Program-made: the position numbers and the translations under genes
Part shown: in pieces, positions 22,744 through 39,679 of the stretch
Numbering within the stretch: the stretch's first letter is position 1
How the letters are laid out: every line of letters starts with the position of its first letter
Origin: Candidatus Yanofskybacteria bacterium
GTDB taxonomy: Bacteria > Patescibacteriota > Minisyncoccia > 2-02-FULL-40-12 > GWA2-44-9
Direction: 5' to 3'
Assembly (NCBI GenBank): GCA_020852375.1
Contig: JADZAY010000008.1
Location: forward strand, 9,688-73,687
DNA: 64,000 nucleotides
The notes under the pieces: model-generated
Databases searched by the model: none
Told to the model about the DNA's origin: nothing
The model's input: the letters and a program-made list of their open reading frames with translations, nothing else

Positions 22744-24516
22744 ATGCCCGGCAAGGCGCCTCAAACACTTATCAATGAGCTGGTACGCATCGGCCGCCTG
22801 ACAAAGGCGGACGCTGATGCTTTGGTCTCGGCGGCAGTCCGAGAGGGGAAAGACGTCGGTGCGGCGCTGATCGAGGCCGGCACCATGAGCGATGCCGAGC
22901 TCGCGAAATTCAAAAGCGAATTGTATCGGCTCCCGCAAGTTGACCTTTCGCAGACGGAACCGGATCCTGCTGCGCTCGGTGAGATCAGCGAGGATGTCGC
23001 CGGATTCTACCGGGTCATTCCGTTCGCGGTCGCCGACGGAGTGCTAAAGGTCGGTATTGTCGATCCGGAAGACATCAATGCGCTCGAGGCGCTGAAGTTC
23101 ATTGCCGCGGACAAGGGCTTGAAGCTGGAGAAGTATGTGCTCATGTACCGAGATTTCGCCGGAGCGCTCAAGCGGTTCAAGTCGTTGAGCGGCGAGGTCG
23201 GCAAAGCTCTGGAGTCGATCGCGGAAGAGGCGGGACAGGCGGTCGGTGGCGGGGAGCCGGAGCTGTCGCTCGACCAGATCACCGCAGAGAGCCCGGTGAC
23301 GAAAGTCGTATCGGCGATGCTCGCGCACGCGATCGATGGCCGTGCGTCCGATATTCACATCGAGCCGTTCGACACGGATACGCGCGTTCGGTTCCGCGTC
23401 GATGGCGTCCTGCAGGCGGTACTCACGCTTCCGAAGAATCTCCACCCGTCCGTGGTGACGCGCATCAAGATCCTCTCGAATCTCAAGATCGATGAGACGC
23501 GCGTTCCGCAGGATGGACGCTTCAGCATCTACCAGGGCAAGACGAAGATTGATTTTCGTGTCAGCACGTTCCCGACGAAAGCGGGGGAGAAGGTAGTGAT
23601 GCGCATCCTTGACCCGCTGTCGAGCCGCATCGATCTTCCGGGGCTCGGAGTGACCGGCCGAAGTGCTACGCTCCTACAGGAGGCGATCGAGAAGCCTTAC
23701 GGCATCATTCTGATCACCGGGCCGACCGGCTCCGGAAAATCGACGACCATTGCCGCGTTGTTGAAACAGATGAACACCGAGGAGATCAACATTGTGACCC
23801 TCGAGGATCCGATCGAGTACTACATCGACGGGGTGAACCAGTCGCAGACGCACGAAGAGATCGGGTACACATTCGCAAATGGCCTTCGCTCGATCCTGCG
23901 CCAAGACCCGGACGTTATCATGGTTGGTGAGATCCGAGATCGTGAGACTGCAGGGCTTGCGGTACAGGCGGCACTGACAGGGCATATCGTGCTCTCAACG
24001 CTCCACACGAACGATGCGCTCGGGGTGATCCCGCGCTTGGTGGATATGGGGGTCGAGAAGTATCTGCTTCCGCCGGTGCTGAACCTTGCGGTTGCTCAGC
24101 GACTTCTGCGTCGGCTGTGTCCGACGTGCAAAGTGAAGGATGTCGCGAACGAGGCGGAAGCGAAGATCATTTCCGATGCGCTTGCGCACATGCCGCAGGA
24201 GCTGGTCGCTCCATATCTGAAGGAACAGTTCGAGGTGTATCGTCCGAACACGAAGTCGCCGTGCAAGGAGTGCGGCGGGAAGGCTTTCAAGGGGCGTATC
24301 GCGATCTTCGAGATGCTGCACATGACCGACGAGCTTGAGGGTATTATCCTGGGAAACCTCTCCGAAGCAGCATTGCGTGATGAAGCGAAGCGGCAGGGGA
24401 TGGTCAGTATGTTCCAGGACGGCATCTTGAAAGTGCTCGACGGGACTTGCTCACTCCAGGAGCTGCTCGAAGTCGCTCAGGCGAGTGACGAGGAGGAGCC
24501 GCCGAAGGCCGCATAA
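22744..24516 (+). CDS. pilB: Type IV pilus assembly ATPase PilB (GspE family)
   Basis: It has an N-terminal GspII-like domain, Walker A GPTGSGKSTT, Asp/His boxes and a tetracysteine motif CPTC...CKEC. Confidence 0.92.
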   Translation: MPGKAPQTLINELVRIGRLTKADADALVSAAVREGKDVGAALIEAGTMSDAELAKFKSELYRLPQVDLSQTEPDPAALGEISEDVAGFYRVIPFAVADGVLKVGIVDPEDINALEALKFIAADKGLKLEKYVLMYRDFAGALKRFKSLSGEVGKALESIAEEAGQAVGGGEPELSLDQITAESPVTKVVSAMLAHAIDGRASDIHIEPFDTDTRVRFRVDGVLQAVLTLPKNLHPSVVTRIKILSNLKIDETRVPQDGRFSIYQGKTKIDFRVSTFPTKAGEKVVMRILDPLSSRIDLPGLGVTGRSATLLQEAIEKPYGIILITGPTGSGKSTTIAALLKQMNTEEINIVTLEDPIEYYIDGVNQSQTHEEIGYTFANGLRSILRQDPDVIMVGEIRDRETAGLAVQAALTGHIVLSTLHTNDALGVIPRLVDMGVEKYLLPPVLNLAVAQRLLRRLCPTCKVKDVANEAEAKIISDALAHMPQELVAPYLKEQFEVYRPNTKSPCKECGGKAFKGRIAIFEMLHMTDELEGIILGNLSEAALRDEAKRQGMVSMFQDGILKVLDGTCSLQELLEVAQASDEEEPPKAA

Positions 24517-24525
24517 CATCGAACC

Positions 24526-25740
24526 ATGCAGTTTTCCTATCAGGTCAAACACCAGGACGGAACGCTCCACAGCGGACTCATCGAAGCCCCGGACGAAGGA
24601 GCTGCGGTCGCCGAGCTGCACGGGCGCGGGTTTGTGGTGCTTTCGCTGGCGTCTGCGCAGAAGGGGATATTCTCCGGCGGCGATCTCAACCAGCTGTTCA
24701 ATCGGCCGAAGACGAAAGACGTCGTCGTATTCACGCGACAGCTCGCGACGCTTATCGAGGCGGATGTGCCGCTCGCGGAGAGTATGCGCACATTGGCAGG
24801 GCAGACCGATAATCCGGCGTTCTCGCGTATCATCGCGGAAGTAAGCGACAAGCTCGAAGGGGGGACATCGTTGTCGGCCGCATTCGCGGCGCACCCGAAG
24901 TTGTTCTCGCAGTTCTACGTGAAACTCGTTCGGTCGGGTGAGATCTCCGGTCGTCTCCAGCAGTCGCTCCAGTATCTTGCCGATTACCTGGAGCGCAACC
25001 AGGCGATCGCAGGGAAGGTGCGCAACGCCCTCGCGTATCCCATCTTCGTCATCTTTGCCATGGTCGCGGTCGCGCTGATCATGGTGGTGTATGTGTTGCC
25101 GCAGCTGCTCGTCATCTTCAAGGAGTCAGGTGTCACCGATCTTCCTATCACCACGAAGGCGCTGATCGCAGTGACTGATTTTACCAACAGCTATATCGTG
25201 TTGATCCTTGGCATGCTGGTGATCACGGTCGTCGGTGCCCTGCAGTGGGTGCGGACGCCGGACGGACGGCACTGGTGGGATGCGTTCAAAGTGCGCATGC
25301 CGTTGTTCGGGATCATTCTTAAGTCGCTCTACCTCGCGCGCATCGCCGAGAACATGGCGACGCTCATCAAGAGCGACATCGCCATCCTCGATGCGCTTCG
25401 CGTGACGGGTGATATCGTCGACAATGTGGTCTATCGCGACATTCTTCTGCACGCCGAAGAGCAGGTGCGAGGCGGCGGGAGCGTTTCGGAGGTGTTCCGG
25501 CAGTATCGGGCCAGCATCCCGCCGCTGATGGCGTCGATGATCGCGATCGGGGAGCGCACGGGGAAACTGGATTACATGCTGGGCCATGTGAGCGCGTTCT
25601 ATCGTACCGATTCTGAAAGCCGCATCGACAACATTTCCGCACTCATCGAGCCGGTACTGGTCGTGGTGCTTGGATTGGGGGTTGCGATCCTTGTCGCTTC
25701 CATTCTCCTCCCGCTCTACTCTCTTGTGGGCGTGTCGTAG
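24526..25740 (+). CDS. pilC: Type IV pilus inner-membrane platform protein PilC (GspF family)
   Basis: 404 aa. Two GspF repeats with the conserved IAEN / GE..G motif, and 3 TM segments. Confidence 0.9.
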   Translation: MQFSYQVKHQDGTLHSGLIEAPDEGAAVAELHGRGFVVLSLASAQKGIFSGGDLNQLFNRPKTKDVVVFTRQLATLIEADVPLAESMRTLAGQTDNPAFSRIIAEVSDKLEGGTSLSAAFAAHPKLFSQFYVKLVRSGEISGRLQQSLQYLADYLERNQAIAGKVRNALAYPIFVIFAMVAVALIMVVYVLPQLLVIFKESGVTDLPITTKALIAVTDFTNSYIVLILGMLVITVVGALQWVRTPDGRHWWDAFKVRMPLFGIILKSLYLARIAENMATLIKSDIAILDALRVTGDIVDNVVYRDILLHAEEQVRGGGSVSEVFRQYRASIPPLMASMIAIGERTGKLDYMLGHVSAFYRTDSESRIDNISALIEPVLVVVLGLGVAILVASILLPLYSLVGVS

Positions 25741-25825
25741 AGGCGTCGTGCACGAGATTGACGTATCGCGAATTTAGCGTACTGTAGCGCTCGGTGGCTT
25801 TGCTCTTTCGGATATTTCCGCGGCA

Positions 25826-26482
25826 GTGCTGCGGACCCTTGTCCTCCGGGCAGGAGGAAGCTTCTCCGCGATCAGCGGGAAGGAGATTGAAATGAAGTAC
25901 GGTCAGTTGACGATGGGGCAGATTGAAGCGGTGGTCAACAAGCTTGGCGGGATGGAGGGTGTTCAACGCCTACTCGCGGGAGACCTCATGATCACCGAGC
26001 TTGCTGAGCGGTTCAAGCCGATGGAGTGGAGGCGAATCGTTCTCGGGGTGCGCGACTCCTGGGATGCGTATCGCGCGTCGTGCGAATCGGCGGGCGTGAT
26101 CGGGGAGGATCTCCGAAGGTACTTTCCTTCTCACAAGATTAGCACCGTTCCGCGTGAGGTTGTCCTTACCGTGGTGTCGGGTGCCCAGCTCGGATTTTCG
26201 AGGCCGGCTAAGCGCGCCGCAATCATTGCCCGTGCTGAAAGTGTGGGGGTTCGGACATGTCCAGGGGAAGTTGCCCTCGTGCTTTCCATGGCATATCTCG
26301 ACCAGCCTCCTCACGAGGTGCTGACGATTGCCACGGATCCGGCGCAGGAGTTTGGCGAGACTCCCGGGGTGTTTCAGGTCGCTGCAGGACTTCTGTCGCG
26401 AAGACTAATCCGTCGTCCCAGCGACCCGTCCGCTCTCTGGAGTCCGGAAGTCCAATGGGTGTTTCGGATGATGGTCCGCTAG
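25826..26482 (+). CDS. Hypothetical protein (embedded in pilus cluster)
   Basis: 218 aa (or 196 aa from MKYGQLTMGQ at 25892). No recognised motif. Its 3' end overlaps the next gene by 28 bp. Confidence 0.45.
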   Translation: MLRTLVLRAGGSFSAISGKEIEMKYGQLTMGQIEAVVNKLGGMEGVQRLLAGDLMITELAERFKPMEWRRIVLGVRDSWDAYRASCESAGVIGEDLRRYFPSHKISTVPREVVLTVVSGAQLGFSRPAKRAAIIARAESVGVRTCPGEVALVLSMAYLDQPPHEVLTIATDPAQEFGETPGVFQVAAGLLSRRLIRRPSDPSALWSPEVQWVFRMMVR

Positions 26483-26985
26483 CATTTCAGCCCGGCAACG
26501 CGCCGGGCTTTTTGTTCGCATACCTTGACTCAACGCATGGGAGTTGTATCGTTGCTGTCGGTTCTTTCAGAGGAGGCGTCATGGGACGATGGTGTCCTAC
26601 CCTCGATGATGTGTTTTACTTCAGCTATGACTGCCCTTATGTCCAGGAGATACAGCTTGCGAGGGAGAGGGGTGCCCGAGTGGTCATCGTGCATTCGGGG
26701 GCTGTCGGAATAAGCGAGGTGAAGCTGTTCGATTCCTGCACTTCTGTCCCACGGGTTCGGGTGAGCGGCGAAGCGTCTGGCCCAGAGCCGCTTGCGGAGG
26801 CCACTGCGCTTCTGTTTGTTCATGGGTGGGATCTCCATGATGCCGCTACGCGGGAGTGGCTTGATCGCTACACATACGCGATACGGGCGTTGCGGGAGGG
26901 GGATCCCATGGGCTATGCAGGGGCGCTCGAACGGGTCGAGAAAGTTTGCCCCGACCGCTACGTACCGATTTGGACTGTGCCGTAA
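26455..26985 (+). CDS. Hypothetical protein (embedded in pilus cluster)
   Basis: The start is set at the internal MGVSDDGPLAF (track ORF 26257..26985). About 176 aa, Cys-containing, no recognised motif. Confidence 0.4.
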   Translation: MGVSDDGPLAFQPGNAPGFLFAYLDSTHGSCIVAVGSFRGGVMGRWCPTLDDVFYFSYDCPYVQEIQLARERGARVVIVHSGAVGISEVKLFDSCTSVPRVRVSGEASGPEPLAEATALLFVHGWDLHDAATREWLDRYTYAIRALREGDPMGYAGALERVEKVCPDRYVPIWTVP

Positions 26986-27061
26986 TGATTCGGTTTCGCC
27001 GCCCTTCTCGGCGGCTTTTTGTTTGGTTCGCGGGAAGGACAAGGGCGAACGGCATTGACTT

Positions 27062-27832
27062 TTGTATGAAATGATGCTGCCATTAGAAGGCAGGGCGACT
27101 CAGTTCCCGTGCGCTTTGAAAACGGCAAGTCCCGGGCCCGTCATGGTGACGGGTAAGGGATACGCCATAGTTAAGGAGGCGAGCATGGCTCGTCAGAAGA
27201 GCGAGTTCCTGAAAGGGTGGGGGAAGGCCTTCGAGGTGTTCAAGGCCATCGTCGATTCGGTTCTGGCGCTGGGCGGCGGCGATGCCGACCTAGAGCGGGT
27301 CCTCACCGACAAGACCCTACGGACCGAGATCGCCAAGCTTATTGTCGGCACCGCAAAGGTGATCCGTTCCGTCAGCGTTGTCACCGCTCCCGCCGTCGCG
27401 AAATTCGTTGCGCATGACCGCTTCACGGTGAACATCGCTGCGAACCTCCCGGTCCGCATCGGCTACCTCGGCGACAACTTCAAGAAGCACTTCCTGTCCA
27501 AGACGGAGGAGAACGTCGCCCGGGCCGAGCTCACGAGCTTCCAGCTCACCAAGGACTCCCTAGACAGGGACATCTTGGCCCAGCTGGGAGACACGGCCGA
27601 GATCTCCCTGGCCCACCTCTGGTACCTGCTCTCGCTCCAGCCCAACGGCGAGCCAGGCTTCCTGCTCACCAACGGCTACGCCAACATCTTCTACATCCGC
27701 GATGCCTCCGGAATCCTCTGGGCCGTCCGCGCGGACTGGGACGCCGGTTACGGCCACTGGGGTGTGGAGGCGTACTCGGTGTCCGGCCCGGACGGGTGGA
27801 GCGCCGGCCGCCAGGTGGTTTCTCGCGAGTAG
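27062..27832 (+). CDS. Hypothetical protein (embedded in pilus cluster)
   Basis: 256 aa (alternative start MARQKSEF at about 27185). Normal composition, no recognised motif. A strong terminator follows. Confidence 0.5.
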   Translation: MYEMMLPLEGRATQFPCALKTASPGPVMVTGKGYAIVKEASMARQKSEFLKGWGKAFEVFKAIVDSVLALGGGDADLERVLTDKTLRTEIAKLIVGTAKVIRSVSVVTAPAVAKFVAHDRFTVNIAANLPVRIGYLGDNFKKHFLSKTEENVARAELTSFQLTKDSLDRDILAQLGDTAEISLAHLWYLLSLQPNGEPGFLLTNGYANIFYIRDASGILWAVRADWDAGYGHWGVEAYSVSGPDGWSAGRQVVSRE

Positions 27833-27861
27833 CGCTTGGGCGCTTTGACTCTCGACTCTCG

Positions 27862-27895
27862 GACCCGGTGCGGTTTATCCGCACCGGGTCTTTTT
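27862..27895 (+). terminator. Rho-independent terminator
   Basis: GACCCGGTGCGG-TTTAT-CCGCACCGGGTC followed by TTTTT. Confidence 0.7.
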
Positions 27896-27975
27896 GACAC
27901 ACGCTCTGTTGATAACGGACTGTCGTTTCGGGGGAGGGGGATATACAATGAAGGCGTATTCACGTTACTCGTTTT

Positions 27976-28473
27976 ATGTTCACACCCACTAAGTTCCTCC
28001 GGCGTGAGAAGGGCTTCACTCTTGTGGAGCTGTTGGTCGTTATCGCTATCATTGGCGTACTGGCGACGCTGGTACTCCTCCAGCTCGGCACCGCTCGCGC
28101 TCGCGCTCGCGATACCAAGCGCATCACGGATGTGAACCAGATCCGCACGGCGATCGAGCAGTATTTCGAAGACAACGGTGGCGTCTATCCGACCGCGATC
28201 ACTTCGACCGAGATCGGGCGCTATCTCACGCGCGTTCCCGTCGATCCGCTGACCGGTCAGCCGTACGGCTACGCATACAATCCCGCCGCATCACCCTCGC
28301 AGTTCCAGGTGTGGGCGCTTCTTGAGCAGACCGCTGCCGCCTTGAATGGTGACGCCGACATCGACAGTAGTGGGTGGTCGGGGGATACGAATAGCGTGGG
28401 GACTGGAGACTCTGAGTGTGGCAAAGGCGCAAAGGGAAGCACTGTGTGCGTCTACGATCAGGGAATTCAGTAG
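27976..28473 (+). CDS. pilA: Type IV pilin (major pilin candidate, PilA-like)
   Basis: Class III signal and N-terminal helix KGFTLVELLVVIAIIGVLATLVLLQLGTAR. 165 aa. A strong hairpin follows immediately downstream. Confidence 0.85.
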   Translation: MFTPTKFLRREKGFTLVELLVVIAIIGVLATLVLLQLGTARARARDTKRITDVNQIRTAIEQYFEDNGGVYPTAITSTEIGRYLTRVPVDPLTGQPYGYAYNPAASPSQFQVWALLEQTAAALNGDADIDSSGWSGDTNSVGTGDSECGKGAKGSTVCVYDQGIQ

Positions 28474-28495
28474 TTCGCGGATAGTAGCGTGTGCA

Positions 28496-28521
28496 TTCCG
28501 CCCTCCAAAAGGAGGGCGGAA
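28496..28521 (+). terminator. Hairpin terminator after the pilin gene
   Basis: TTCCGCCCTCC-AAAA-GGAGGGCGGAA, an 11-bp perfect stem. The U-tract is weak. Confidence 0.5.
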
Positions 28522-28536
28522 TGGTATACTGAGGGC

Positions 28537-29295
28537 ATGGAGATCGTCATCGTTGCACTCGTCGGAATGCTCTTGGGGAGCTTTTTGAGCGTACTCATCG
28601 GACGGTGGCCCCACTGGCGTGGCGTTGCAACGGGCAGGTCGCACTGTCCGAACTGCATGCACACGCTCGCGTGGTATGACCTTATCCCCGTGGCGAGCTG
28701 GGCGTGGTTGCGCGGACGGTGCCGGTATTGCGGCGGCCCGATCTCGCCACTCTACCCGGCGCTCGAGGTGAGCGTTGCGGCTGTTCTCGGAATCGCGGTC
28801 GCGCTTTTTGGGGTCGGTTCGTGGTGGAGCATCATCGGGCTCGTCATATTGTTCGGACTTATCGCGCTCTTCTTTTTCGATCTGATCCACCGGATGCTTC
28901 CCGATGTCATTGTCTATCCGTTGACCGGCGTCGTGCTGTTCCGGATCTTGCTGGAGCGACCCGATCTGTTGGTCAATGCGCTGGCGGCCGGCGTGCTATT
29001 GAGTGCCGCGTTCGGATTGTTGTACCTGCGTTCACGCGGGCGATGGCTTGGGCTCGGCGATGTGAAGCTTGCGTTCACGATCGGCGTATTGTTCGGATAT
29101 CCGATTGCGATCGGCGTCACGTTGGTGGCGATCTGGGTTGGGGCGCTGATGGGCGTTGGATTGATGCTATTCCGGCGGGCGACGATGACCACCGAGCTTC
29201 CGTTCGGGTCGTTCTGGACTGCAGCGGCGATCGTAACGATATTGAGTCCCGGCTGGGTCGCGTATCTTTCGGGCCTTTTGATGCCGGCCTGGTAA
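28537..29295 (+). CDS. pilD: Prepilin peptidase PilD (peptidase A24)
   Basis: The start is set at MEIVIVALVG.... The Cys box CPNC...CRYC and multiple TM helices follow. The upstream part of track ORF 28489.. overlaps the terminator hairpin. Confidence 0.85.
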   Translation: MEIVIVALVGMLLGSFLSVLIGRWPHWRGVATGRSHCPNCMHTLAWYDLIPVASWAWLRGRCRYCGGPISPLYPALEVSVAAVLGIAVALFGVGSWWSIIGLVILFGLIALFFFDLIHRMLPDVIVYPLTGVVLFRILLERPDLLVNALAAGVLLSAAFGLLYLRSRGRWLGLGDVKLAFTIGVLFGYPIAIGVTLVAIWVGALMGVGLMLFRRATMTTELPFGSFWTAAAIVTILSPGWVAYLSGLLMPAW

Positions 29296-29302
29296 CAATC
29301 AC

Positions 29303-29839
29303 ATGGGGCATCAGGGACAACAAGGATTCACACTGCTCGAGGTGCTCGTTGTGGCGAGCATCACCGTGTTCATCACCGGGCTTTTGGTCGTGAACTTTTC
29401 TCGGACGCGGGTCGATCTGAATCAAACGATCCTGACGATCCAGGATGCGATACGCGAAGTGCAGGGGCAGGCGCTTTCGGGTTCTCTGGTGCGGGGGACG
29501 CATCGGTGCGGATACGGCATCGTCTTCACTGCGACCGGATACACGCTCTATGCAGGGCCGGACTCCGCGGCGGTGGATTGTGTCGGGGCGCCGCGGACGT
29601 TCGATGCGGGTGCGAGCACGGTCCTTCGCCAGGCACTCCTTGCAAGCAACGTGCTTGAGGTGGTATCTCCGTTGCCGGATATTTACTTCGAGCCGCCGAA
29701 TCCGACCACGTACCTGAACGGAGCGGCGAACCCAGGAGCAACGGCGACGATACTGGTTCGCCGAAAAGGCGCGCAGTGTCCGTCCGCGGATTGCCGTGCG
29801 CTGACCGTGTCATCGTCAGGTCGCATTGAATTGCAATGA
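29303..29839 (+). CDS. Prepilin-type N-terminal cleavage/methylation domain protein (minor pilin)
   Basis: N-terminus QGFTLLEVLVVASITVFITGLLVV. Confidence 0.7.
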   Translation: MGHQGQQGFTLLEVLVVASITVFITGLLVVNFSRTRVDLNQTILTIQDAIREVQGQALSGSLVRGTHRCGYGIVFTATGYTLYAGPDSAAVDCVGAPRTFDAGASTVLRQALLASNVLEVVSPLPDIYFEPPNPTTYLNGAANPGATATILVRRKGAQCPSADCRALTVSSSGRIELQ

Positions 29840-30318
29840 ACAAGCGAGGATTCACATTGGTCGAAGTGTTGGTCGCGTTGGCGCTCCTGAGCGTCGGGTT
29901 GGTGCCCGCATTCATCCAGGCGACAAATGCGCTCATGCTTTCCACTACCGTGCGGAATTCGCTCATCGCCGCGCACCTTGCCCAAGAGGGTGTCGAGGTG
30001 CTGCGCGCTCTGCGAGACGACAACTGGTTTGCCGGGCGCGCATTCGATGCTGGTCTTGATGCGTGCCAGGTGGGATGCATTCTTGCGTGGAATGCCGACA
30101 CGCCCCAGGATGCTGCCGGTAACCTTCCGCTCAAGTTCGATGCCGCGACGGGCATGTATCAGTACGCAACCGGTACGGACTCGCCATTCCGCCGGAAGAT
30201 TACGGTTGCCCACGTTTCTCCCGTCGAGCTTTCCGTGATCAGCGAGGTGACGTGGCGCGAGCGCTCGGTCGACAAGCGGTTCGTCGTAGAATCGCATTTG
30301 TACAACTGGCTCCCATGA
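29836..30318 (+). CDS. Prepilin-type N-terminal cleavage/methylation domain protein (minor pilin)
   Basis: N-terminus MNKRGFTLVEVLVALALLSVGLV. It overlaps neighbouring genes by 4 bp on each side. Confidence 0.7.
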   Translation: MNKRGFTLVEVLVALALLSVGLVPAFIQATNALMLSTTVRNSLIAAHLAQEGVEVLRALRDDNWFAGRAFDAGLDACQVGCILAWNADTPQDAAGNLPLKFDAATGMYQYATGTDSPFRRKITVAHVSPVELSVISEVTWRERSVDKRFVVESHLYNWLP

Positions 30319-30890
30319 CGCGAACCACACTTCCGATCTCTGATCCTCAGCCTCAGGAAAAGGGGTTCTCCCTTATCGAGCTGCTGGTCGCCGCGACGAT
30401 CTTTACCTTTGTGGTAACAGGAGTGACCGGGCTCTTCCTGCAAGCGCTCGACCTCCAGCGTCGCGCCTCGGGCATCCAGAAGATCGAGGAGAACGCGCAG
30501 TTTCTGATCGAGTCCATCGCACGCGAGATCCGCGTGAGCCGCATCACGAGTTCCGATTCGATCTGCACGCCGCCGGATCCTGCCACGACTCGAACGCTGG
30601 TGATCGAACATCCCGTGAACGGGACCATCACCTATACCTACGCGAAGGTTGGTGGCGTCGGAGCGGTGATGCGCGATGACGGGAGTGGTCCCCAGCAGGT
30701 CACCGCGAAGGATGTCGACCTCACAGCATTCGCGTTTTGCGTGACCGGATCCGGGCCCGGCGGCAAGCAGGCCCGGGTGACCATTCCCATGACGCTCCGT
30801 TCGACCGCCGGCCGTGCCGGTGCGCAGGTATCAGTGTCGCTGCAGACGACTATCGTCGCCCGGGACCTTTCTCAAGACATTGTTCCATGA
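30315..30890 (+). CDS. Prepilin-type N-terminal cleavage/methylation domain protein (minor pilin)
   Basis: The start is set at MTRTTLPISDPQPQEKGFSLIELLVAATIFTFVV. There are ATGA overlaps at both ends. Confidence 0.65.
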   Translation: MTRTTLPISDPQPQEKGFSLIELLVAATIFTFVVTGVTGLFLQALDLQRRASGIQKIEENAQFLIESIAREIRVSRITSSDSICTPPDPATTRTLVIEHPVNGTITYTYAKVGGVGAVMRDDGSGPQQVTAKDVDLTAFAFCVTGSGPGGKQARVTIPMTLRSTAGRAGAQVSVSLQTTIVARDLSQDIVP

Positions 30891-31261
30891 ATCACACACG
30901 CGAGCGCCAACGGGGGAGCGTTATCATCTACGCCATGCTGACCATGTCGGTCATGCTGGCGATCGGGCTTACGCTCAACGCGCTATTCATCGGGAAGCTG
31001 CGATCCGCTTCCGCGGCGCGCGATTCGATGGTCGCACTGTACGCCGCCGATAGCGCGGCTGAGCTCTGTCTTATTGAAGCTCGCTCGGCCACCGACCAGC
31101 CGCCCATCACGTTCTCCATGGGGGCCACCTATCAGATCACCGATGTGGGTTCGGGTGCGGATGTGACCGACAACTGCATGGCGCTTGGGAGCGCCTCGTT
31201 CCAATTCCGAGCGGTTGGCCGCTATCGTGGGACCTCTCGGGCGCTAGAGATCAGCCAATAA
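30887..31261 (+). CDS. Pilus-associated small protein with N-terminal TM (PilX-like minor pilin candidate)
   Basis: The start is set at MNHTRERQRGSVIIYAMLTMSVMLAIGLTL. 124 aa. This is the last gene of the pilin block. Confidence 0.5.
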   Translation: MNHTRERQRGSVIIYAMLTMSVMLAIGLTLNALFIGKLRSASAARDSMVALYAADSAAELCLIEARSATDQPPITFSMGATYQITDVGSGADVTDNCMALGSASFQFRAVGRYRGTSRALEISQ

Positions 31262-31479: not shown

Positions 31480-33507
31480 ATGGAAAAGGTCGCCGCCCGG
31501 GAGCGCATTGAGAAGCTCCGAAAACTCATTGACCAGTACCGGTACGAGTACCATGTGCTCGACCGGCTTTCGATATCCGAGGACGCTCTGGACTCGCTGA
31601 AAAAGGAGCTGTTCGATCTTGAGCAGGAGCACCCCGAGCTTATTACCCCTGATTCGCCGACCCAACGGGTCGCTGGGAAGCCGCTGGAGGGATTCACGAA
31701 GGTGGAGCATCCCGGGCGGATGATATCGCTGAACGACGCTTTTTCCGAAGCCGACCTTCGGGCCTGGCGCGAGCGGCTGGAGAATTTTCTAGGCGCGCCG
31801 TATCGCGGAGGATTCTACTGCGATCTGAAGATGGACGGGCTGGCTATCGAGCTGCGCTACGAGCGCGGCGTCTTGGTGCAGGCATCGACGCGGGGAGACG
31901 GTATGGTAGGGGAGGATGTGACGCAGAACATTCGTACCGTCGAGGCGGTTCCGCTACGGCTCCGAGATACGGAGCGAAATATTCCCGAGACGCTCCTGGT
32001 CCGCGGCGAGGCGTTTCTCATGAAGAGTGAGTTCGCACGCATCAATGCGGAGTTGGCTGAAAACGGCGAAAAGACATACGCGAATCCGCGAAACCTCGCC
32101 GCCGGCACGATCCGGCAGCTCGATCCCTCGGTGACCGCCGGACGAAAGTTGTCGTTTTACGGATACAGCGTGGTCGCAACCGACGGCGCATACGGGGGAG
32201 ACTTCGCGACGCATGCCGACGAATATGCGGCGTTGCGCGCGTGGGGTGTTCCGGTCAACCCGCACGGCATCGTTGCCGACGACCTCGACGGCGTGCTGGC
32301 GTTCTATCGTGCATGGGAGGAGAAGCGTGACGCGCTGGACTATGAGTTCGACGGCACGGTCATTTCGGTGAACGACAACGAAATCTATCGCCGCGCGGGT
32401 ATTGTGGGGAAGTCGCCGCGTGGGGCCATCGCATTCAAGTTCGCACCGCGGCAGGCGGAGACCGTCGTCGAAGACATTCAAGTGCAGGTCGGGCGGACCG
32501 GCGTGCTCACGCCTGTCGCGCATCTGCGCCCGGTCCACATCGGCGGCACTACGGTGAGCCGCGCGACACTGCACAATCTCGACGAAGTGCGCCGCCTCGA
32601 TGTGCGCATCGGGGATACGGTCATTGTCGGTCGGGCCGGAGATGTGATCCCCGATATCCTCAAATCGTTACCCGAGCTTCGGCCGGCCGGCGCAAAAGAA
32701 TTCTCTATGCCGAAGAAGTGTCCGGTGTGCGGTGCGGCGATCGTCCAGCAGAACGAGCAGGTTGCCTTCGTGTGTCCGAACACGGAGTGCCCCGCAAAGC
32801 AACGGCGGAGCATGTATCACTTCGCCAGTCGGAATGCGCTGAACATCGAAGGGCTGGGGCCGCAGACCCTTGACCAACTGCTCGATGCCGGACTCATCAC
32901 CGATGCCGCCGACCTGTTCGTGCTGACTCCCGAGGATCTTCTGAACCTGGAGGGATTTGCGGATGTTTCGAGCGCGAAGCTTGTTGGATCCATTCGATCG
33001 CGGAAAAAAGTTCCGCTTTCCCGATTCGTGTATGCGTTGGGCATCGAGCATGTGGGGGAGGAGACTGCGCGGGCGCTCGCCCACCATTTCCATACGCTTT
33101 CCGCGCTTGCAGGTGCATCGGAAGGAGAGCTGGTCGCCGTGCCCGATATCGGTCCGGTGGTTGCGCGGAGTATCGCGGAGTGGTTTGCGCGGCCGTACAA
33201 TAAGCAGCTGCTCAAGAAGTTCGACGCTGCGGGAGTGCAGGTGCTTGCCGAGAAAGGTGCGGCAAAAGGAAAGCTGTCCGGTAAAACGTTCGTGGTCACC
33301 GGGACACTGGACTCCATGAGCCGCGAGGAGGCGGAGGAGAAGATTCGCGCCCTGGGCGGGAAAGCGGTGAGCTCGGTGAGCAAGGCAACGACCGCGGTCA
33401 TCGTGGGAACCAATCCGGGTTCCGCAAAGATCGCTGCCGCCCAGAAATACGGCACTGAACAGCTTACCGAGCAAGAATTCCTTGTTCTCGTCCGCCGAAT
33501 ACCGTGA
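31480..33507 (+). CDS. ligA: NAD-dependent DNA ligase
   Basis: The start is set at MEKVAARERIEKLR.... The adenylation motif is KMDGLA. It has an OB-fold, a Zn finger (CPVCGA...CPNTEC), HhH repeats and a C-terminal BRCT domain (FVVTGTL..SR.EAE). Confidence 0.92.
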   Translation: MEKVAARERIEKLRKLIDQYRYEYHVLDRLSISEDALDSLKKELFDLEQEHPELITPDSPTQRVAGKPLEGFTKVEHPGRMISLNDAFSEADLRAWRERLENFLGAPYRGGFYCDLKMDGLAIELRYERGVLVQASTRGDGMVGEDVTQNIRTVEAVPLRLRDTERNIPETLLVRGEAFLMKSEFARINAELAENGEKTYANPRNLAAGTIRQLDPSVTAGRKLSFYGYSVVATDGAYGGDFATHADEYAALRAWGVPVNPHGIVADDLDGVLAFYRAWEEKRDALDYEFDGTVISVNDNEIYRRAGIVGKSPRGAIAFKFAPRQAETVVEDIQVQVGRTGVLTPVAHLRPVHIGGTTVSRATLHNLDEVRRLDVRIGDTVIVGRAGDVIPDILKSLPELRPAGAKEFSMPKKCPVCGAAIVQQNEQVAFVCPNTECPAKQRRSMYHFASRNALNIEGLGPQTLDQLLDAGLITDAADLFVLTPEDLLNLEGFADVSSAKLVGSIRSRKKVPLSRFVYALGIEHVGEETARALAHHFHTLSALAGASEGELVAVPDIGPVVARSIAEWFARPYNKQLLKKFDAAGVQVLAEKGAAKGKLSGKTFVVTGTLDSMSREEAEEKIRALGGKAVSSVSKATTAVIVGTNPGSAKIAAAQKYGTEQLTEQEFLVLVRRIP

Positions 33508-33519
33508 TAGACTTCCGCC

Positions 33520-35688
33520 ATGCCTTCCGAACCGCACCCGAACACCGCTCCGGAATTCAAATCCGTCCGCGAAGAACACCGCGCTCTGCGTAAGGTCCAG
33601 AAGAGCATGGCTGAACACGGAGCGGTACCCGAAGACCTGGCCGCGGAGCTGGAATCGCTCAAACAGCGAGCCCGCGATCTTGTTGCGCAAGCCGGAGGAT
33701 TCTGGGAGTTGCGGAAACAGCGGCGGGAGACCGAATCTCTGCGGCCAATCGTTCGCTCCGTTTCGTCCGGCCGCGCCGAACTCCGCCGGCGAGCGTTTCA
33801 GATCGCCCGTGCATCGGCACAGCACGGCATGACGGCGTGGGCGGAGCGCGCCCTTGCCGCCCTGGACACCGACCTTCGCGCAATGGACGAGCAGATCGAG
33901 AAGCTCCGGCAGGACCCGGAATCCGCCGTCCAGCTCCGGATGATCGAACTCTCCGGCTGGCGCGACCAACTTCAGGAAGGGTACGCAGCCACGCAATCCC
34001 GCCAAGAGCACCTGGACCGCATGCAGGAGCTCATCCAGGCCGGCAAGCCCATCTTCCTGAAGGGACCCACCGGCACGGGGAAAACGGAGCTGGCCCGCAG
34101 GCTCGTACACGAGCTGTACGGAAAAGACCCTGAAATCGTCCGCGGCAACCCGAACGTGCAGGAGTGGACCATGATCGGGCAGGTGGGGCTCCGGGCAACC
34201 GAGCAGGGAGCAACCGAAACGGTGTTCGACCCCGGTCCGGTCATCCGAGCCATGACCCGGGGCATTCCCGTCGTCATCGACGAGTTCAACCAGATCGATC
34301 CGCAGGTCCGATTCGTGCTCAAGGAGCTGTACAACCGCAGGCCGGGCGACTGCGTGCAGGTGCCGAACAACGGAACGCACTGCATCGAGGACGGATTTGC
34401 CATTATCGTGACTGCCAACCTGGGCAGCCGCTACGAGAAGGCGCGGTTCCCGTTGGACGATGCCGAAGAGCGGGTGTTCCTGGATTGCACCGTGGATGTC
34501 GGCTACCTCCCGCCCCACGAACTCTACGACCTCTGCCTGGCATCGCTTATTGCGGTGCGCGGCCAGGCACCGGTGAGCGCGGCGGAGGCGGCGGACGTCC
34601 TGAAGCGGTACTGCGACGCCGTCAGCGAGATCGACCGCATCTACACGGACGGCACGAGCGCATTCGATCTGGAGGGCAAGGCATCCCGCGGCGTCAAACA
34701 GGCGCTGGAGAAAACCGTCATCGATCCCGGTCTCGCGCTCCGCCTGGTCCGCGACTACGCGGTCGCCGGCTCGCGCGCCGCATCGCTGGCGGAACACCTC
34801 GCGCGCCGCGTCACCGACCTCCTGGTGAACCTCAACAACGACAACGACCGCAACCTCATGGCGAAGGTGTTTTCCCAGTTCGGCATCATCACCGTCCCGA
34901 TCGGCGATCTCGCCGCGACTGCCGCCACCCGCACGGTGCTCTCCTCCGCGCCGCTGCCGGCATCGGAGCGCGGCAGTATCCCGCTCCGCGACGCGGCACT
35001 CCTGGACCCGTACCGCCGCCGCGCCGCGTCCCTGGAAGCGGATGCGGAATCGCTGGGAGTGTCCCGGGTCAAGCCACCGGACACAATCATCCCCGGCGGT
35101 TCGCCGGAGCGCGCATCCGCCGCGGTGACCGCCTTCCTCCGCGACACGTTCCAGAACGCCTGGAGCTACACTCCGAAGCAGCTCGCGATCGCGGAGCAGA
35201 ATCTGAAGCCCGAATTCGTCGCTCCCTCCGTTGTGGACTACGCCGCGCGCAAAGCCGATGTCAATGCGGCGCAATCCGGCCAGTACACCCTGAACCCCGA
35301 AACCGTCGGCATCGACTGGGATTCCCTGACTCCCGAGCAGATCGCCGAACGGACCGAGATCGTCGACCTCAACGCCGATCCCGTATTCGCGAAGCTCGCA
35401 GACAAATCGCTCGCTTCCGTTGCCGACTTCGTTACCCGTACCTACGGCTCCGCCCGTCTCCCCGGTCTGGAGCTGGAACGGCGCCTCTACGCGCTCGGCA
35501 ACCAGGCTCCCGCCGCCTTCAAAGAGGTCGGCGCGTATGTATTTTTCTTCGGATCGCTTATCCGGAACGCCAACGGCTACTGGAATGTGCCGTATGCGTA
35601 CTGGGGCGGTGCGGGGTGGTTTCGGGGCGGCTACTGGCTTGAGAATGGCTGGAATGCCGATTGCCGCCTCGTCCTCGTGAAGAGATAG
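33520..35688 (+). CDS. AAA (AAA_5/MoxR-like) ATPase with a C-terminal C-type-lectin-like variable region, the DGR target protein
   Basis: 722 aa. Walker A FLKGPTGTGKTELARR and Walker B VVIDEFNQ. The C-terminal 40 aa (NANGYWNVPYAYWGGAGWFRGGYWLENGWNADCRLVLVKR) are encoded by the VR copy of the DGR repeat. Confidence 0.8.
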   Translation: MPSEPHPNTAPEFKSVREEHRALRKVQKSMAEHGAVPEDLAAELESLKQRARDLVAQAGGFWELRKQRRETESLRPIVRSVSSGRAELRRRAFQIARASAQHGMTAWAERALAALDTDLRAMDEQIEKLRQDPESAVQLRMIELSGWRDQLQEGYAATQSRQEHLDRMQELIQAGKPIFLKGPTGTGKTELARRLVHELYGKDPEIVRGNPNVQEWTMIGQVGLRATEQGATETVFDPGPVIRAMTRGIPVVIDEFNQIDPQVRFVLKELYNRRPGDCVQVPNNGTHCIEDGFAIIVTANLGSRYEKARFPLDDAEERVFLDCTVDVGYLPPHELYDLCLASLIAVRGQAPVSAAEAADVLKRYCDAVSEIDRIYTDGTSAFDLEGKASRGVKQALEKTVIDPGLALRLVRDYAVAGSRAASLAEHLARRVTDLLVNLNNDNDRNLMAKVFSQFGIITVPIGDLAATAATRTVLSSAPLPASERGSIPLRDAALLDPYRRRAASLEADAESLGVSRVKPPDTIIPGGSPERASAAVTAFLRDTFQNAWSYTPKQLAIAEQNLKPEFVAPSVVDYAARKADVNAAQSGQYTLNPETVGIDWDSLTPEQIAERTEIVDLNADPVFAKLADKSLASVADFVTRTYGSARLPGLELERRLYALGNQAPAAFKEVGAYVFFFGSLIRNANGYWNVPYAYWGGAGWFRGGYWLENGWNADCRLVLVKR
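35557..35677 (+). repeat. DGR variable repeat (VR) at the 3' end of the target gene
   Basis: 121 bp. Compared with the copy at 35961-36081, 111 of 121 positions are identical. All 10 differences are T or G here where the other copy has A. Confidence 0.85.
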
Positions 35689-35960
35689 CTCGTTGTGCTT
35701 GATCCGTTGTGATGATTCTTGATCTGTTGGTGGTTGGTCTGCGCCGCGAATATCGGCAGGCCGGATGTTCCCGTCTGCCGCGGCGTCGAGACGAATGACT
35801 CCCGAATGCGGTCTGCCAGCGCTCGCCGCAGTGCGGGTCATGCACATCGTGACGATACGAAGCGCGTCTGCGTAAGATGCCAGGGCATTGCGATGCCGAA
35901 TCAGATTCAGCCCCGAGGAAGGAGAACCAAGGGGCGGTGACACGGAAGGCATTCTGCGCT

Positions 35961-36081
35961 CATATCCGGAACGCCAACGGCAACTGGAATGTGCCGTATG
36001 CGAACTGGGACGGTACGGGGTGGAATCGGAACGGCAACTGGCTTGAGAATGGCTGGAATGCCGATTGCCGCCTCGTCCTCG
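35961..36081 (+). repeat. DGR template repeat (TR)
   Basis: This is the A-bearing copy. The AAC codons correspond to TAC/TTT/GGC/GCG-type codons in the VR. Identity ends at the same GC-rich 3' block (GCCGATTGCCGCCTCGTCCTCG), a candidate IMH element. Confidence 0.85.
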
Positions 36082-36473: not shown

Positions 36474-37466
36474 ATGACTCTGAATGTAGCATACGACAGC
36501 ATATTTTCATACGAGCGGCTCTTCGCGAGCTGGCGTGCGTTTGCGCGCGGGAAGCGGCAGCGTGCGGACGTCGCCGCATACGCCGTGCGCCTGATAGACA
36601 ATATCTCGTCATTGCACCGTGACCTTGCGAACGGAACATGGCAGCATGGCGGGTATCGCCGTTTTTGTGTTTCCGATCCGAAACCGCGCATTATCCACAA
36701 GGCATCGGTACGCGACCGCATTGTCCACCACGCGATCATGTCCGCGCTCGGTCCGTACTTTGAGCGGCGATTCATTCCGGATTCATACTCCTGCAGAATC
36801 GGGAAGGGAACTCATTGTGCGCTGGGCAGGTTCGCGGAGTTCATCCGAAGCGGCAGTCGCAACGACACGCGCACCTGCTGGGTGCTCCAGTGTGACATTC
36901 GGAAGTGCTTCGCATCGCTTGATCAAAGGGTGCTCATCGCACTTCTTTCACGGCATGTACCCTGCGAGAAGTTGATGCGGGTGCTCCGGTCGGTCATTGA
37001 GAGTTACTCGTCCGGGGCATCGGGAGCTGGAATTCCGCTTGGCAACCTCACGAGCCAGCTGTTCGTAAATGTGTACCTTCATGAACTCGACAGGTTCATG
37101 GGGAAGACGCTTCGATGCTTGCAGTATATTCGCTACGCCGATGACTTTGCGGTAGTTTCTCCGAACCGCGCGTGGCTCATGTCACTCGTGCCGCATATCC
37201 GTAATTTTCTGGGCACTGCTCTCAAGTTGCAACTGCATCCGGGCAAACTCACTCTGCGGACAGTCGCTTCGGGCGTGGATTTCCTCGGGTGGGTCCATTT
37301 TCCGAACCACCGCGTCTTGCGCACGGCAACGAAGCGGCGAATGTTCCATGCATTGCGGCGATCCGCCGCGCTTCCGACGGTCGCGTCGTACCTTGGCTTG
37401 CTCGGCAATGGAAATACGCATCGCCTCGTGCAAATGGTCAGAGGGCTTGCTATACTCCACGAATAA
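36474..37466 (+). CDS. DGR-type reverse transcriptase
   Basis: The start is set at MTLNVAYDS.... RT motifs include FIPDSYSCRIGKGTH, the DGR-characteristic IPLGNLTSQLFVNVYL (LGxxxSQ) and the catalytic YADDF. About 330 aa, with no maturase or endonuclease domains. Confidence 0.85.
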   Translation: MTLNVAYDSIFSYERLFASWRAFARGKRQRADVAAYAVRLIDNISSLHRDLANGTWQHGGYRRFCVSDPKPRIIHKASVRDRIVHHAIMSALGPYFERRFIPDSYSCRIGKGTHCALGRFAEFIRSGSRNDTRTCWVLQCDIRKCFASLDQRVLIALLSRHVPCEKLMRVLRSVIESYSSGASGAGIPLGNLTSQLFVNVYLHELDRFMGKTLRCLQYIRYADDFAVVSPNRAWLMSLVPHIRNFLGTALKLQLHPGKLTLRTVASGVDFLGWVHFPNHRVLRTATKRRMFHALRRSAALPTVASYLGLLGNGNTHRLVQMVRGLAILHE

Positions 37467-37468
37467 GC

Positions 37469-39343
37469 ATGACGGAGCGCATCTCGGAGCCAACACCGGA
37501 GCAGACCGCGCGGCGGGAAATGGCCGAGCGAATTTGGCGCGAGCATGGGAGGTATTTTGAATCGTATGCGGGCACGTATGGGTTGGAAGTCAAGCCGTCG
37601 CCTCCCGGACTGGGAACATTCGCTGTCAATTTGGAAAAAGGCATCCTCTATATCGCGACGGAGTGGTTCCTGGAGCGGGGATATTCCGAAGCGGAGATTC
37701 CCGCCTATGTACTGCACGAGATGGAGCATATGCGGGAAGCGGATGCGCTGGTGCGTACTCATGGCGGACTGGGGGTGTGGCGAGAGCACGGCAAGCGGTG
37801 CAAGGCCAGCCGACGATTCCGTATTTTAGATAACTGCGTAGATGACATCAAGATGAACCGGACCGTAATGCTCCGTGCGCCGGTACAGACAGAAACGCTT
37901 CTCGACTTTTATCGCAGGCGGTTCAATGGGGGAACGAATGATCTTTCGGGAGCGCCGCGGCATTTGCAGTTTGCGTACGCGCTCCTGCGGCTGGCAATGT
38001 TGCCTGATGAACCGGTCGTCGTGGCACCCGAAGTACGGGAGGCGCTGGACGAGCTGGAGGCGCTCCGTGGCCGAAGCGGTCGCACCGCGCTGGACATTAT
38101 GACGGATCCACAGGTGGATATGGCCACACGTCTTACGCTCCAGGAAAAAAACGTTGAACCGCTGTTCGAGCGGTTGTATGAGCGGGATCGTCGGGAGCGG
38201 CAACCGGAAAAACCGGGCGATAGCCAGGGCGGGGAGAAAAGTGGCGGCGAAGGCGGGGGCGAGGGCGACGATCCGTTCGCCAGCGAGTATGACCGTTTTG
38301 ATGCGCAGAATCCGGATGGAGCGCTCTCCGACGACGCGCTCGGGGACGCGGTGGACGAGGCGGATGCGTCCGGCGCGCTTGCGCGTCCGCGCGGCGGACA
38401 GCTGGCAGACGCGGCACGGGATGCTCGTTCTGCGTACGCTCGTGAACATGGCGTTTCCGAATCCGAACTTGCCGCATACCGGCGATTCTACGATCAGTTG
38501 ACAGCGCTTACTGACCCCGAAACGGGTCGCACGGTTGTTGACGGTTTGCGGGATGTGTTTGAGCAAATCATTTCGGAACGTGAGCGACCACGGGTGGTGC
38601 CGAAGCATCCGGTTATACATGGCCACCGGCTTTCACGGCCGGCACAGGCGCATATTGCGGCGCGAACGGGCGACCGGCACCCCTCTGTGTGGGAGACGGT
38701 CGAACGAAAGGAGAAAAAAGGCGAGCTGTACGGCGACGTTGATGTAGTGCTCGTCTGTGATCGGTCGGGGAGCATGCTCGGCCAGAAGGCAATCCAGCAG
38801 CGACTGGCGGCGGGTTTGATGCTGGAGGCGCTTGCCGACTTTTCCGAGCTCATCCATGAGCGTGCGAGCGGGCTGACCGATCCGCTGGTCGTGCGAACCC
38901 AGACGTGGTCGTTCGGTGACGAGGCGGTCACGAACGAGCTCAAGCCGTTGAGCGATAACCTAACCGAGCGCGATCGCGTGGCCGTGTTTCATGCGCTCGG
39001 CTCTACTCCGGGCAGCTCCACGATGGATTACGAAGCGCTCAAGCGTATTGCAGACGGCATTGATGCGGGCGAACAGCAACTGCTCCGTCAGAAAAAACTG
39101 AAGAAGATCATCATCGCGCTTACCGATGGCGTTAGTAGCGATATGCCCGCGTTGCGTGGCCAGATTGAGCGGCTCCGTGGCATGGGCGCGGTTGTTGTCG
39201 GTGTTGGTATCACCAAAGACGGCGTATCGGCCGAGACATCATATGCTCCGAACGGCCTTGTCTGTGCGGAGGTCGCAGCTCTGCCGCGCACGCTCGCCGA
39301 CCTATTGAAAAAGCATTTGGCTGACCTGAATGTCCGGCGGTGA
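37469..39343 (+). CDS. von Willebrand factor A domain protein with N-terminal HExxH (zinc-metallopeptidase-like) domain
   Basis: The start is set at MTERISEPTPEQ... (3 bp after the RT stop). The N-terminal domain has YVLHEMEHMREADAL. An acidic Gly-rich linker follows. The C-terminal VWA has a MIDAS-like motif VVLVCDRSGSM...IIIALTDGVS. Confidence 0.75.
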   Translation: MTERISEPTPEQTARREMAERIWREHGRYFESYAGTYGLEVKPSPPGLGTFAVNLEKGILYIATEWFLERGYSEAEIPAYVLHEMEHMREADALVRTHGGLGVWREHGKRCKASRRFRILDNCVDDIKMNRTVMLRAPVQTETLLDFYRRRFNGGTNDLSGAPRHLQFAYALLRLAMLPDEPVVVAPEVREALDELEALRGRSGRTALDIMTDPQVDMATRLTLQEKNVEPLFERLYERDRRERQPEKPGDSQGGEKSGGEGGGEGDDPFASEYDRFDAQNPDGALSDDALGDAVDEADASGALARPRGGQLADAARDARSAYAREHGVSESELAAYRRFYDQLTALTDPETGRTVVDGLRDVFEQIISERERPRVVPKHPVIHGHRLSRPAQAHIAARTGDRHPSVWETVERKEKKGELYGDVDVVLVCDRSGSMLGQKAIQQRLAAGLMLEALADFSELIHERASGLTDPLVVRTQTWSFGDEAVTNELKPLSDNLTERDRVAVFHALGSTPGSSTMDYEALKRIADGIDAGEQQLLRQKKLKKIIIALTDGVSSDMPALRGQIERLRGMGAVVVGVGITKDGVSAETSYAPNGLVCAEVAALPRTLADLLKKHLADLNVRR

Positions 39344-39358
39344 TATCTGAAACAGCGC

Positions 39359-39679
39359 GTGCATACGGCATGGATTGACTTTGATTCTCGTACGGCCTAC
39401 CATCGGGTTATGGAAAAAGACGTGCGTGACGCCATCGAGGATTTAGCGCTTGTGACGGCTCGCGAGTTTCAAACACTTCGAGAAGATCTCAAGCAGTTTG
39501 CCACGAAAGAAGATCTCAAGCAGTTTGCCACGAAAGAAGATCTCGCGGCGGGATTTTCAATGGTGATGGATATTATTCGTCCTATGCGGCGGGATTATGA
39601 AGCTCTTAAAGACGACCTGGCGCCCCGGATGGATAGCGTGGAGCAGCGCCTGCTGAAGGTGGAGCACAAGGTTGCATAG
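39359..39679 (+). CDS. Small coiled-coil hypothetical protein with internal tandem repeat
   Basis: 106 aa (alternative start MEKDVRDA). It contains a 27-bp tandem duplication encoding KEDLKQFAT twice. Confidence 0.4.
   Translation: MHTAWIDFDSRTAYHRVMEKDVRDAIEDLALVTAREFQTLREDLKQFATKEDLKQFATKEDLAAGFSMVMDIIRPMRRDYEALKDDLAPRMDSVEQRLLKVEHKVA

Follow-up and report, generated by a model that had tools for sequence, protein, structure and literature searches.

A complete chromosomal diversity-generating retroelement (DGR) of the type found in the candidate phyla radiation (CPR) is encoded on contig JADZAY010000008.1 of a Candidatus Yanofskybacteria bacterium, within the 64,000-nucleotide stretch that was analysed as a whole and is called the window below. 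The locus consists of a target gene that ends in the variable repeat (VR), a template repeat (TR), a reverse-strand avd gene and a reverse transcriptase (RT) gene. The target is assigned by its sequence to the MoxR/midasin class of AAA_5 ATPases, and the DGR can alter as many as 16 codons in the β3-β4 region of its C-terminal domain, which is modelled as a C-type-lectin (CLec) fold. Genetic linkage ties this ATPase to a partner that combines a putative zincin-like HExxH domain with a VWA domain bearing a metal-ion-dependent adhesion site (MIDAS). In the taxonomy, Candidatus Yanofskybacteria belong to the Parcubacteria group of the Patescibacteria and thus to the CPR, and the target is 100% identical to the NCBI entry 'MAG: AAA family ATPase [Candidatus Yanofskybacteria bacterium]'. 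The features of the locus are listed here by position in the window.

33520..35688 (+): DGR target, an open reading frame (ORF) for a 722-aa AAA_5 ATPase with a C-terminal CLec-like variable domain
34051..34428 (+): AAA_5 core, aa 178-303, predicted from Pfam PF07728 (E=1.7e-13), PDB midasin/NorQ matches and motif conservation
34063-34086 (+): Walker A, GPTGTGKT
34270-34284 (+): Walker B, VVIDE
34417-34419 (+): sensor-1, N300
35095..35685 (+): C-terminal domain, aa 526-722, ~195 aa, with a helical N-terminal part and then a predicted C-type-lectin-like core from about aa 612
35559..35677 (+): VR, target codons 681-719, 119 nt, with 9 mismatches to the TR, all at TR adenines
35963..36081 (+): TR, with 26 adenines, 10 AAY codons and 16 mutable codons
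36085..36468 (-): avd (accessory variability determinant; bAvd, DivGenRetAVD), between TR and RT; the mechanical ORF reaches 36639
36474..37466 (+): DGR RT (RVT_1), likely start M26; the mechanical ORF runs from 36399
37469..39343 (+): partner protein, 624 aa, beginning 2 nt past the RT stop
37469-38218 (+): N-terminal zincin-like domain of the partner, HEMEH at 37715-37729
38741-39220 (+): C-terminal VWA domain of the partner, MIDAS DRSGS at 38759-38773

The DGR Cassette

The two repeats lie within a longer direct repeat (35548-35677 and 35952-36081) whose homologous core is the 119-nt VR/TR pair, at an offset of 404 nt. This repeat has two copies in the window and no third, with none expected in shuffles. 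Nine of the 119 positions differ between VR and TR, each of them at a TR adenine and at codon position 1 or 2; with 26 adenines in 119 nt, the chance of such an outcome is (26/119)^9, or about 1e-6. The other 110 positions are identical, including 45 nt at the 3' end, which is GC-rich. Relative to the TR, the VR carries the changes N687Y, N694Y, D696G, T698A, N701F, N703G and N705Y. The initial annotation had placed the VR in the C-terminal tail of the ATPase and had named Tyr, Phe, Gly and Ala codons as the randomised positions; the repeat does encode that tail, its template lies 404 nt further on, and the residues changed between the two copies are exactly those codons. The coding capacity of the TR amounts to about 2.4e15 peptides, and stop codons are unreachable.

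The proteins of the cassette were recognised with differing scores. The RT matches RVT_1 in Pfam with E=6e-18, keeps the YADD and LGNLTSQ motifs intact in translation and is 50-58% identical to the RTs of two related loci, L001 and L002. The avd product matches bAvd in Pfam (5e-9) and DivGenRetAVD in NCBIfam (1.9e-10), each under the curated cutoff, and is 54-55% identical to the genes at the same position in L001 and L002; an orthologue in the same position and orientation occurs in these two and in at least nine further loci. Since avd is reversed between TR and RT, a TR transcript that reaches the RT gene must run antisense through it. Just 5 nt separate the likely starts of avd (36468) and of the RT gene (36474). 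The TR-(avd)-RT arrangement, termed 'B3', is found in 90% of CPR DGRs (PMC5758913). Promoter and terminator scans stayed at chance level, and folding of 35670-35800, searched for a hairpin 3' of the VR, was no better than in shuffles (z = -0.95).

The ATPase Core

The translation of the target carries FLKGPTGTGKT, VVIDEFNQ and the tail NANGYWNVPYAYWGGAGWFRGGYWLENGWNADCRLVLVKR, and can be divided into a 170-aa N-terminal helical extension, the AAA_5 core, a middle region of about 220 aa and the CLec domain. In the Pfam scan, residues 178-303 scored 51.2 bits as AAA_5 (PF07728, E=1.7e-13), above the gathering cutoff of 22, and the other P-loop families stayed below their own cutoffs and matched the target solely around the Walker A loop. 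Among PDB sequences, phmmer matched the target to midasin AAA modules (9e-13) and to NorQ (1.5e-3), and the best NCBIfam match of the ATPase was a partial one, to GvpN. Walker A, the Walker B residues D254 and E255 and sensor-1 N300 are kept in 18-19 of 19 full-length relatives, and position 309, an arginine in the target, is R or K in 17 of the 19. The P-loop ATPase core that had been proposed from the motifs in the N-terminal half stands, as its similarity survives both profile and structure-database searches. A hydropathy scan found no transmembrane-like segments in the target or the partner, and PADLOC assigned neither of them to a defence system, generic P-loop matches aside.

The Lectin-like Variable Domain

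The C-terminal domain was modelled with high confidence in the topology of a C-type-lectin-like domain, β1-α1-α2-β2-β3-β4-β5, with structural similarity to known CLec proteins. The model supports the CLec-type fold that the initial annotation had anticipated. Along strands 163-170 and 175-181 of the domain model, variable and invariant residues alternate. Across 38 relatives, the adenine-encoded positions are hypervariable and the framework is conserved (2.80 versus 1.06 bits), and the framework of the domain family reads GSxxRxxxGxWxVPxxxWxGxxWxRxAxWLxxxWxxxxRVVLLEK.

By its sequence, this domain forms a family separate from the known CLec VR families. None of the 38 domain sequences had a meaningful Pfam match that would place it in FGE-sulfatase/CLec1, DUF1566/CLec2 or CLec3. 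The domain profile gave no match among PDB sequences, and Foldseek against the PDB returned nothing significant. That the domain is an unrelated α/β fold which resembles CLec by chance is very improbable.

The VWA/Zincin-like Partner

The VWA domain of the partner scores 34.6 bits against a Pfam cutoff of 23.8, and its MIDAS signature, DxSxS..T..D, is invariant across the partner relatives. The HExxH of the putative zincin-like domain is likewise invariant in the partner family, whose members have about 620 aa. VWA partners are a hallmark of MoxR ATPases, and DGR-diversified CLec sensors are known in vWA-MoxR systems (PMC7159879, PMC10907252). Just after the partner gene, at 39359-39679, lies a 106-aa ORF with a tandem LKQFATKED repeat and coiled-coil character, which had no family match and is not kept in related loci.

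Relatives of the Locus and Diversification in Nature

An exhaustive profile search gave a family of 198 representatives at E<=1e-30. A word-index homology search with the full target found only the target itself and one relative, and the C-terminal 191 aa used in its place gave no match. Among the representatives, many short, apparently standalone C-terminal-domain proteins resemble contig-edge fragments and were not counted as a separate architecture. The locus survey covered 32 loci from JGI metagenomes, each with a gene for the C-terminal domain. A scan of genome contigs with the Walker A peptide found mostly unrelated AAA proteins, and L002-L005 were retained from it.

About 22 of the 32 surveyed loci encode the C-terminal domain as a fusion with an AAA_5 ATPase, and in about 15 of the 17 fusion loci with enough flanking DNA a VWA partner adjoins the ATPase. 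The 41%-identical relative in L001 has an identical gene order (AAA-VR, TR, reverse avd, RT, VWA protein), and in L002 the VWA gene lies upstream instead. Clustering of all ORFs across the longer loci yielded four conserved families only: target, partner, avd and RT. DGR cassettes at homologous AAA genes, which had been suggested as something to survey, were indeed found, with a downstream TR whose mismatches fall all or nearly all at adenines in at least 11 of the surveyed loci (e.g., 12/12, 10/10 and 20/20). Apparent upstream 'TR' matches in L101 and L102 were rejected as spurious, as just 6 of 16 and 4 of 18 mismatches, respectively, were at A.

Direct evidence that DGRs diversify the AAA-CLec family in nature comes from another locus of this family. 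Over 6,383 nt, the contigs L091 and L092, which come from different samples, differ at just five bases, each of which lies in the VR at a TR adenine. The polymorphic stretch of this AAA-CLec relative is the following.

L091 6216-6234 versus L092 5440-5458: polymorphic VR stretch

The arrangement of the variable domain is not uniform in the family. In L096 (4075-4953), L097 (9671-10549) and L103 (1160-2047), the CLec-like variable domain stands alone, encoded next to the VWA gene by its own ORF of about 290 aa, and the AAA_5 gene is found elsewhere in the locus. The sensor domain seems to pass between a fused and a free state.

Some further observations concern single relatives. In L002, the genes for the VWA partner and the AAA-CLec target are separated by one for an AbiEii-like nucleotidyltransferase toxin (7348-7968; type IV toxin-antitoxin family, E=1e-11). 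The L002 record is labelled Bdellovibrionales; its genes are nonetheless like those of the CPR loci. The region 4487-10133 of L005, from a Patescibacteria genome, includes the gene of a remoter AAA_5 relative of 947 aa with another C-terminal tail and with no RT within 8 kb. It is preceded by the gene for a 929-aa protein in which a transglutaminase-core domain replaces the zincin-like domain.

Comparison with Known Systems

Among the DGR targets of CPR bacteria, AAA ATPase-CLec fusions have been described as the most frequent (Paul et al. 2017, as cited in PMC10907252), and Dore et al. suggested for the ATPase a part in transducing the signals that the C-terminal region detects (PMC10907252). 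Wu et al. (2018) described a CPR VR class, UVR4 (category g1), whose proteins carry midasin-like AAA or P-loop NTPase motifs and whose fold they left unassigned (PMC5758913). The window locus shares with these CPR targets a Parcubacteria-group host, a P-loop/midasin-like AAA domain followed by a VR at the C-terminus, the 'B3' layout with its reverse-strand avd, and AAY-rich mutable codons. No essential difference was found, and the locus is a further member of this group. Its VR class is probably identical to UVR4, and the CLec-like model supports an assignment for a class whose fold was left open in 2018. The fusion of a VR tail to an NTPase, rather than to a tail-fibre or surface scaffold, was a central point of the initial annotation; it is confirmed, as an architecture already known in the CPR.

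The lectin-like variable tail on an AAA ATPase is, accordingly, already in the literature, and what is added here is the size of the family, the L091/L092 polymorphism and the linkage to the partner. A conserved zincin-VWA partner of CPR ATPase targets is not mentioned in PMC5758913, PMC10907252 or PMC7159879, the reports to which the comparison extended, with Paul et al. 2017 standing outside it; the partner is possibly a new detail.

The DGR-associated vWA-MoxR-VMAP ternary conflict systems likewise combine a MoxR-class AAA_5 ATPase, a VWA domain with MIDAS and a DGR-diversified CLec domain, all predicted to be intracellular, and include a peptidase domain, which in the window partner is a putative one (PMC7159879, PMC10907252). 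In those systems, however, the CLec/FGS domain is usually carried by the vWA protein or by a separate target, whereas in the window it sits on the ATPase. Their effector is carried by a third component, VMAP, whereas in the window family a peptidase-like domain is part of the VWA protein. ORF clustering found no third conserved gene across the loci, and the conserved proteins may contain a divergent VMAP domain. The hosts of the vWA-MoxR-VMAP systems are multicellular bacteria, among them cyanobacteria and gammaproteobacteria (Kaur et al. 2020, PMC7159879; Dore et al. 2024, PMC10907252), in contrast to the small-genome CPR host of the window locus, and the RTs of CPR and vWA-MoxR-VMAP systems are said to be of different clades (PMC10907252).

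Classical MoxR-VWA pairs and their kin (CbbQ-CbbO, NorQ-NorD, RavA-ViaA and midasin) resemble the window locus in an AAA_5 core similar to that of NorQ and midasin and in an adjacent gene with a C-terminal VWA domain and a complete MIDAS. Their ATPases, however, have about 270-500 aa and no variable domain, whereas the window target has an N-terminal extension, a middle region and the CLec domain; their VWA partners are without the HExxH domain that the window partner has. The domain has no detectable sequence similarity to Mtd of Bordetella phage BPP-1 or TvpA of Treponema denticola (no FGE-sulfatase or Mtd Pfam match). Mtd is a tail fibre and TvpA a surface lipoprotein, unlike the window domain, which is fused to a predicted cytoplasmic ATPase.

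Proposed Mechanism and Alternative Explanations

The reading that we favour, as a moderately probable one, is that the locus encodes a cytoplasmic machine of the MoxR-VWA type whose ligand specificity is reprogrammed by the DGR. It is modelled on the known MoxR-VWA pairs (CbbQ-CbbO, NorQ-NorD, RavA-ViaA) and on the DGR-linked vWA-MoxR systems (PMC7159879, PMC10907252). The ATPase would form a ring, as other AAA_5/MoxR proteins do, and would display several copies of the variable lectin domain. This domain would serve as the ligand-recognition module, either a sensor or an adaptor, and the DGR would re-draw its specificity. Hydrolysis of ATP would then transmit the binding event to the VWA partner, or remodel it, and the MIDAS site and putative metallopeptidase domain of the partner would give the output, which may be the capture or cleavage of a target or the activation of the peptidase.

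Such a machine would most likely serve to recognise intracellular ligands that change rapidly, for example proteins of phage or host origin, with a parallel in the DGR-linked vWA-MoxR conflict systems known from multicellular bacteria. A role in defence or conflict is a possibility on the less probable side. Less probable as well is a bolder proposal, in which AAA-CLec and zincin-VWA would form a self-contained, two-protein, DGR-programmable machine for recognition and proteolysis (or recognition and signalling), specific to the CPR, acting as an anticipatory, antibody-like intracellular defence or in host manipulation, and evolutionarily distinct from the vWA-MoxR-VMAP systems. If this were true, these tiny-genome organisms would have a motor that bears its own variable receptor.

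Several points weigh against the favoured reading. Two fusion loci with long flanks, L104 and L099, are without an adjacent VWA gene. The ligand, the ATPase activity, the oligomer and the contact between AAA and VWA proteins are predictions drawn here from genes and models, and the cytoplasmic location is predicted by the hydropathy scan only. As CPR bacteria are not multicellular, the analogy with the conflict systems is an extrapolation. A search of the JGI metagenomes with the window TR, its adenines replaced by N, returned no VR variants, and the 90% protein cluster of the target has a single member; for the window locus we infer activity solely from the adenine-only mismatch pattern, the L091/L092 polymorphism belonging to that other locus.

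Among the alternatives, the one that survives best is a housekeeping MoxR-VWA chaperone, comparable to CbbQ-CbbO or NorQ-NorD, which would mature or repair a cellular complex and in which the lectin domain would merely widen or tune the choice of clients, without sensing anything foreign. It would agree with the sequence neighbours of the ATPase (NorQ, GvpN and midasin), with a location among ligA, gatA and tRNA synthetases, and with a neighbourhood in which no toxin-like effector is conserved. A fixed cellular client, however, fits poorly with about 1e15 variants and with adenine-only polymorphism between populations, and the putative protease domain makes the partner more than an adaptor. 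This alternative is therefore considered unlikely.

For the DGR targets of episymbiotic CPR bacteria, the usual general proposal is attachment to surfaces or hosts. Applied to the window locus, it would make the variable protein a surface or host-attachment adhesin, with the AAA domain serving in export or assembly. An AAA+ ATPase requires cytoplasmic ATP, however, and the target and ten relatives have no signal-peptide-like or transmembrane-like segment, with the exception of one probable mis-called start. The conserved partner is a soluble VWA/zincin protein and no secretion component, and pilus genes are not kept beside related loci, so that the adhesin is a rather remote prospect.

A last alternative concerns the state of the element, which could be a fossil cassette whose VR was diversified in the past and which no longer homes. 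The lack of VR variants in the JGI metagenomes and the single-member cluster would suit a fossil, as would avd scores under the curated cutoffs and a region directly 3' of the VR without a convincing hairpin, but a GC-rich hairpin downstream of the VR is present in just 34% of DGRs, about one in three (PMC5758913). Nine of nine differences at TR adenines, with the other 110 positions identical, would be unexpected for a decaying pair; the RT keeps its YADD and LGxxxSQ motifs, and a related locus is polymorphic at its VR in nature. An extinct element is accordingly judged highly unlikely.

Genomic Surroundings

The DGR locus is surrounded by chromosomal housekeeping genes, those for ligA, gatA and tRNA synthetases, and by a type IV pilus cluster.

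22744-31261: type IV pilus cluster, just upstream of ligA and the DGR locus, with a PilB-like T2SSE ATPase, a PilC-like T2SSF protein and several proteins with prepilin-type N-methylation motifs; not conserved beside related DGR loci
44771-48232: class I tRNA synthetase of 1,153 aa, IleRS-like (tRNA-synt_1, Anticodon_1)
32668-35952 (-): ORF of 1,094 aa, antisense over ligA and the entire target gene

The IleRS-like protein contains an unusual insertion, a complete histidine-phosphatase domain (His_Phos_1, E=3e-37, aa 498-664) between the two halves of the catalytic domain. The antisense ORF, similar to shadow ORFs that recur in related loci, looks like a by-product of high G+C and codon bias rather than a gene. 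The G+C content is 57-64% throughout the window, and named Yanofskybacteria genomes in the taxonomy are tagged 36-48%; either the lineage is unusually G+C-rich or the taxonomic label of this metagenome-assembled genome is loose.

Significance

These findings leave the current picture of DGR biology unchanged. ATPase-fused DGR targets are the main hypervariable protein class in CPR bacteria, and a functionally unexplained one. The window locus adds to this class a clean and complete example, with an intact DGR, a CLec-like model of the variable domain and a linked VWA/zincin partner that would place the ATPase in the MoxR-VWA paradigm. As a two-protein system, it makes what may be a class of intracellular, ATP-driven hypervariable receptors experimentally approachable.

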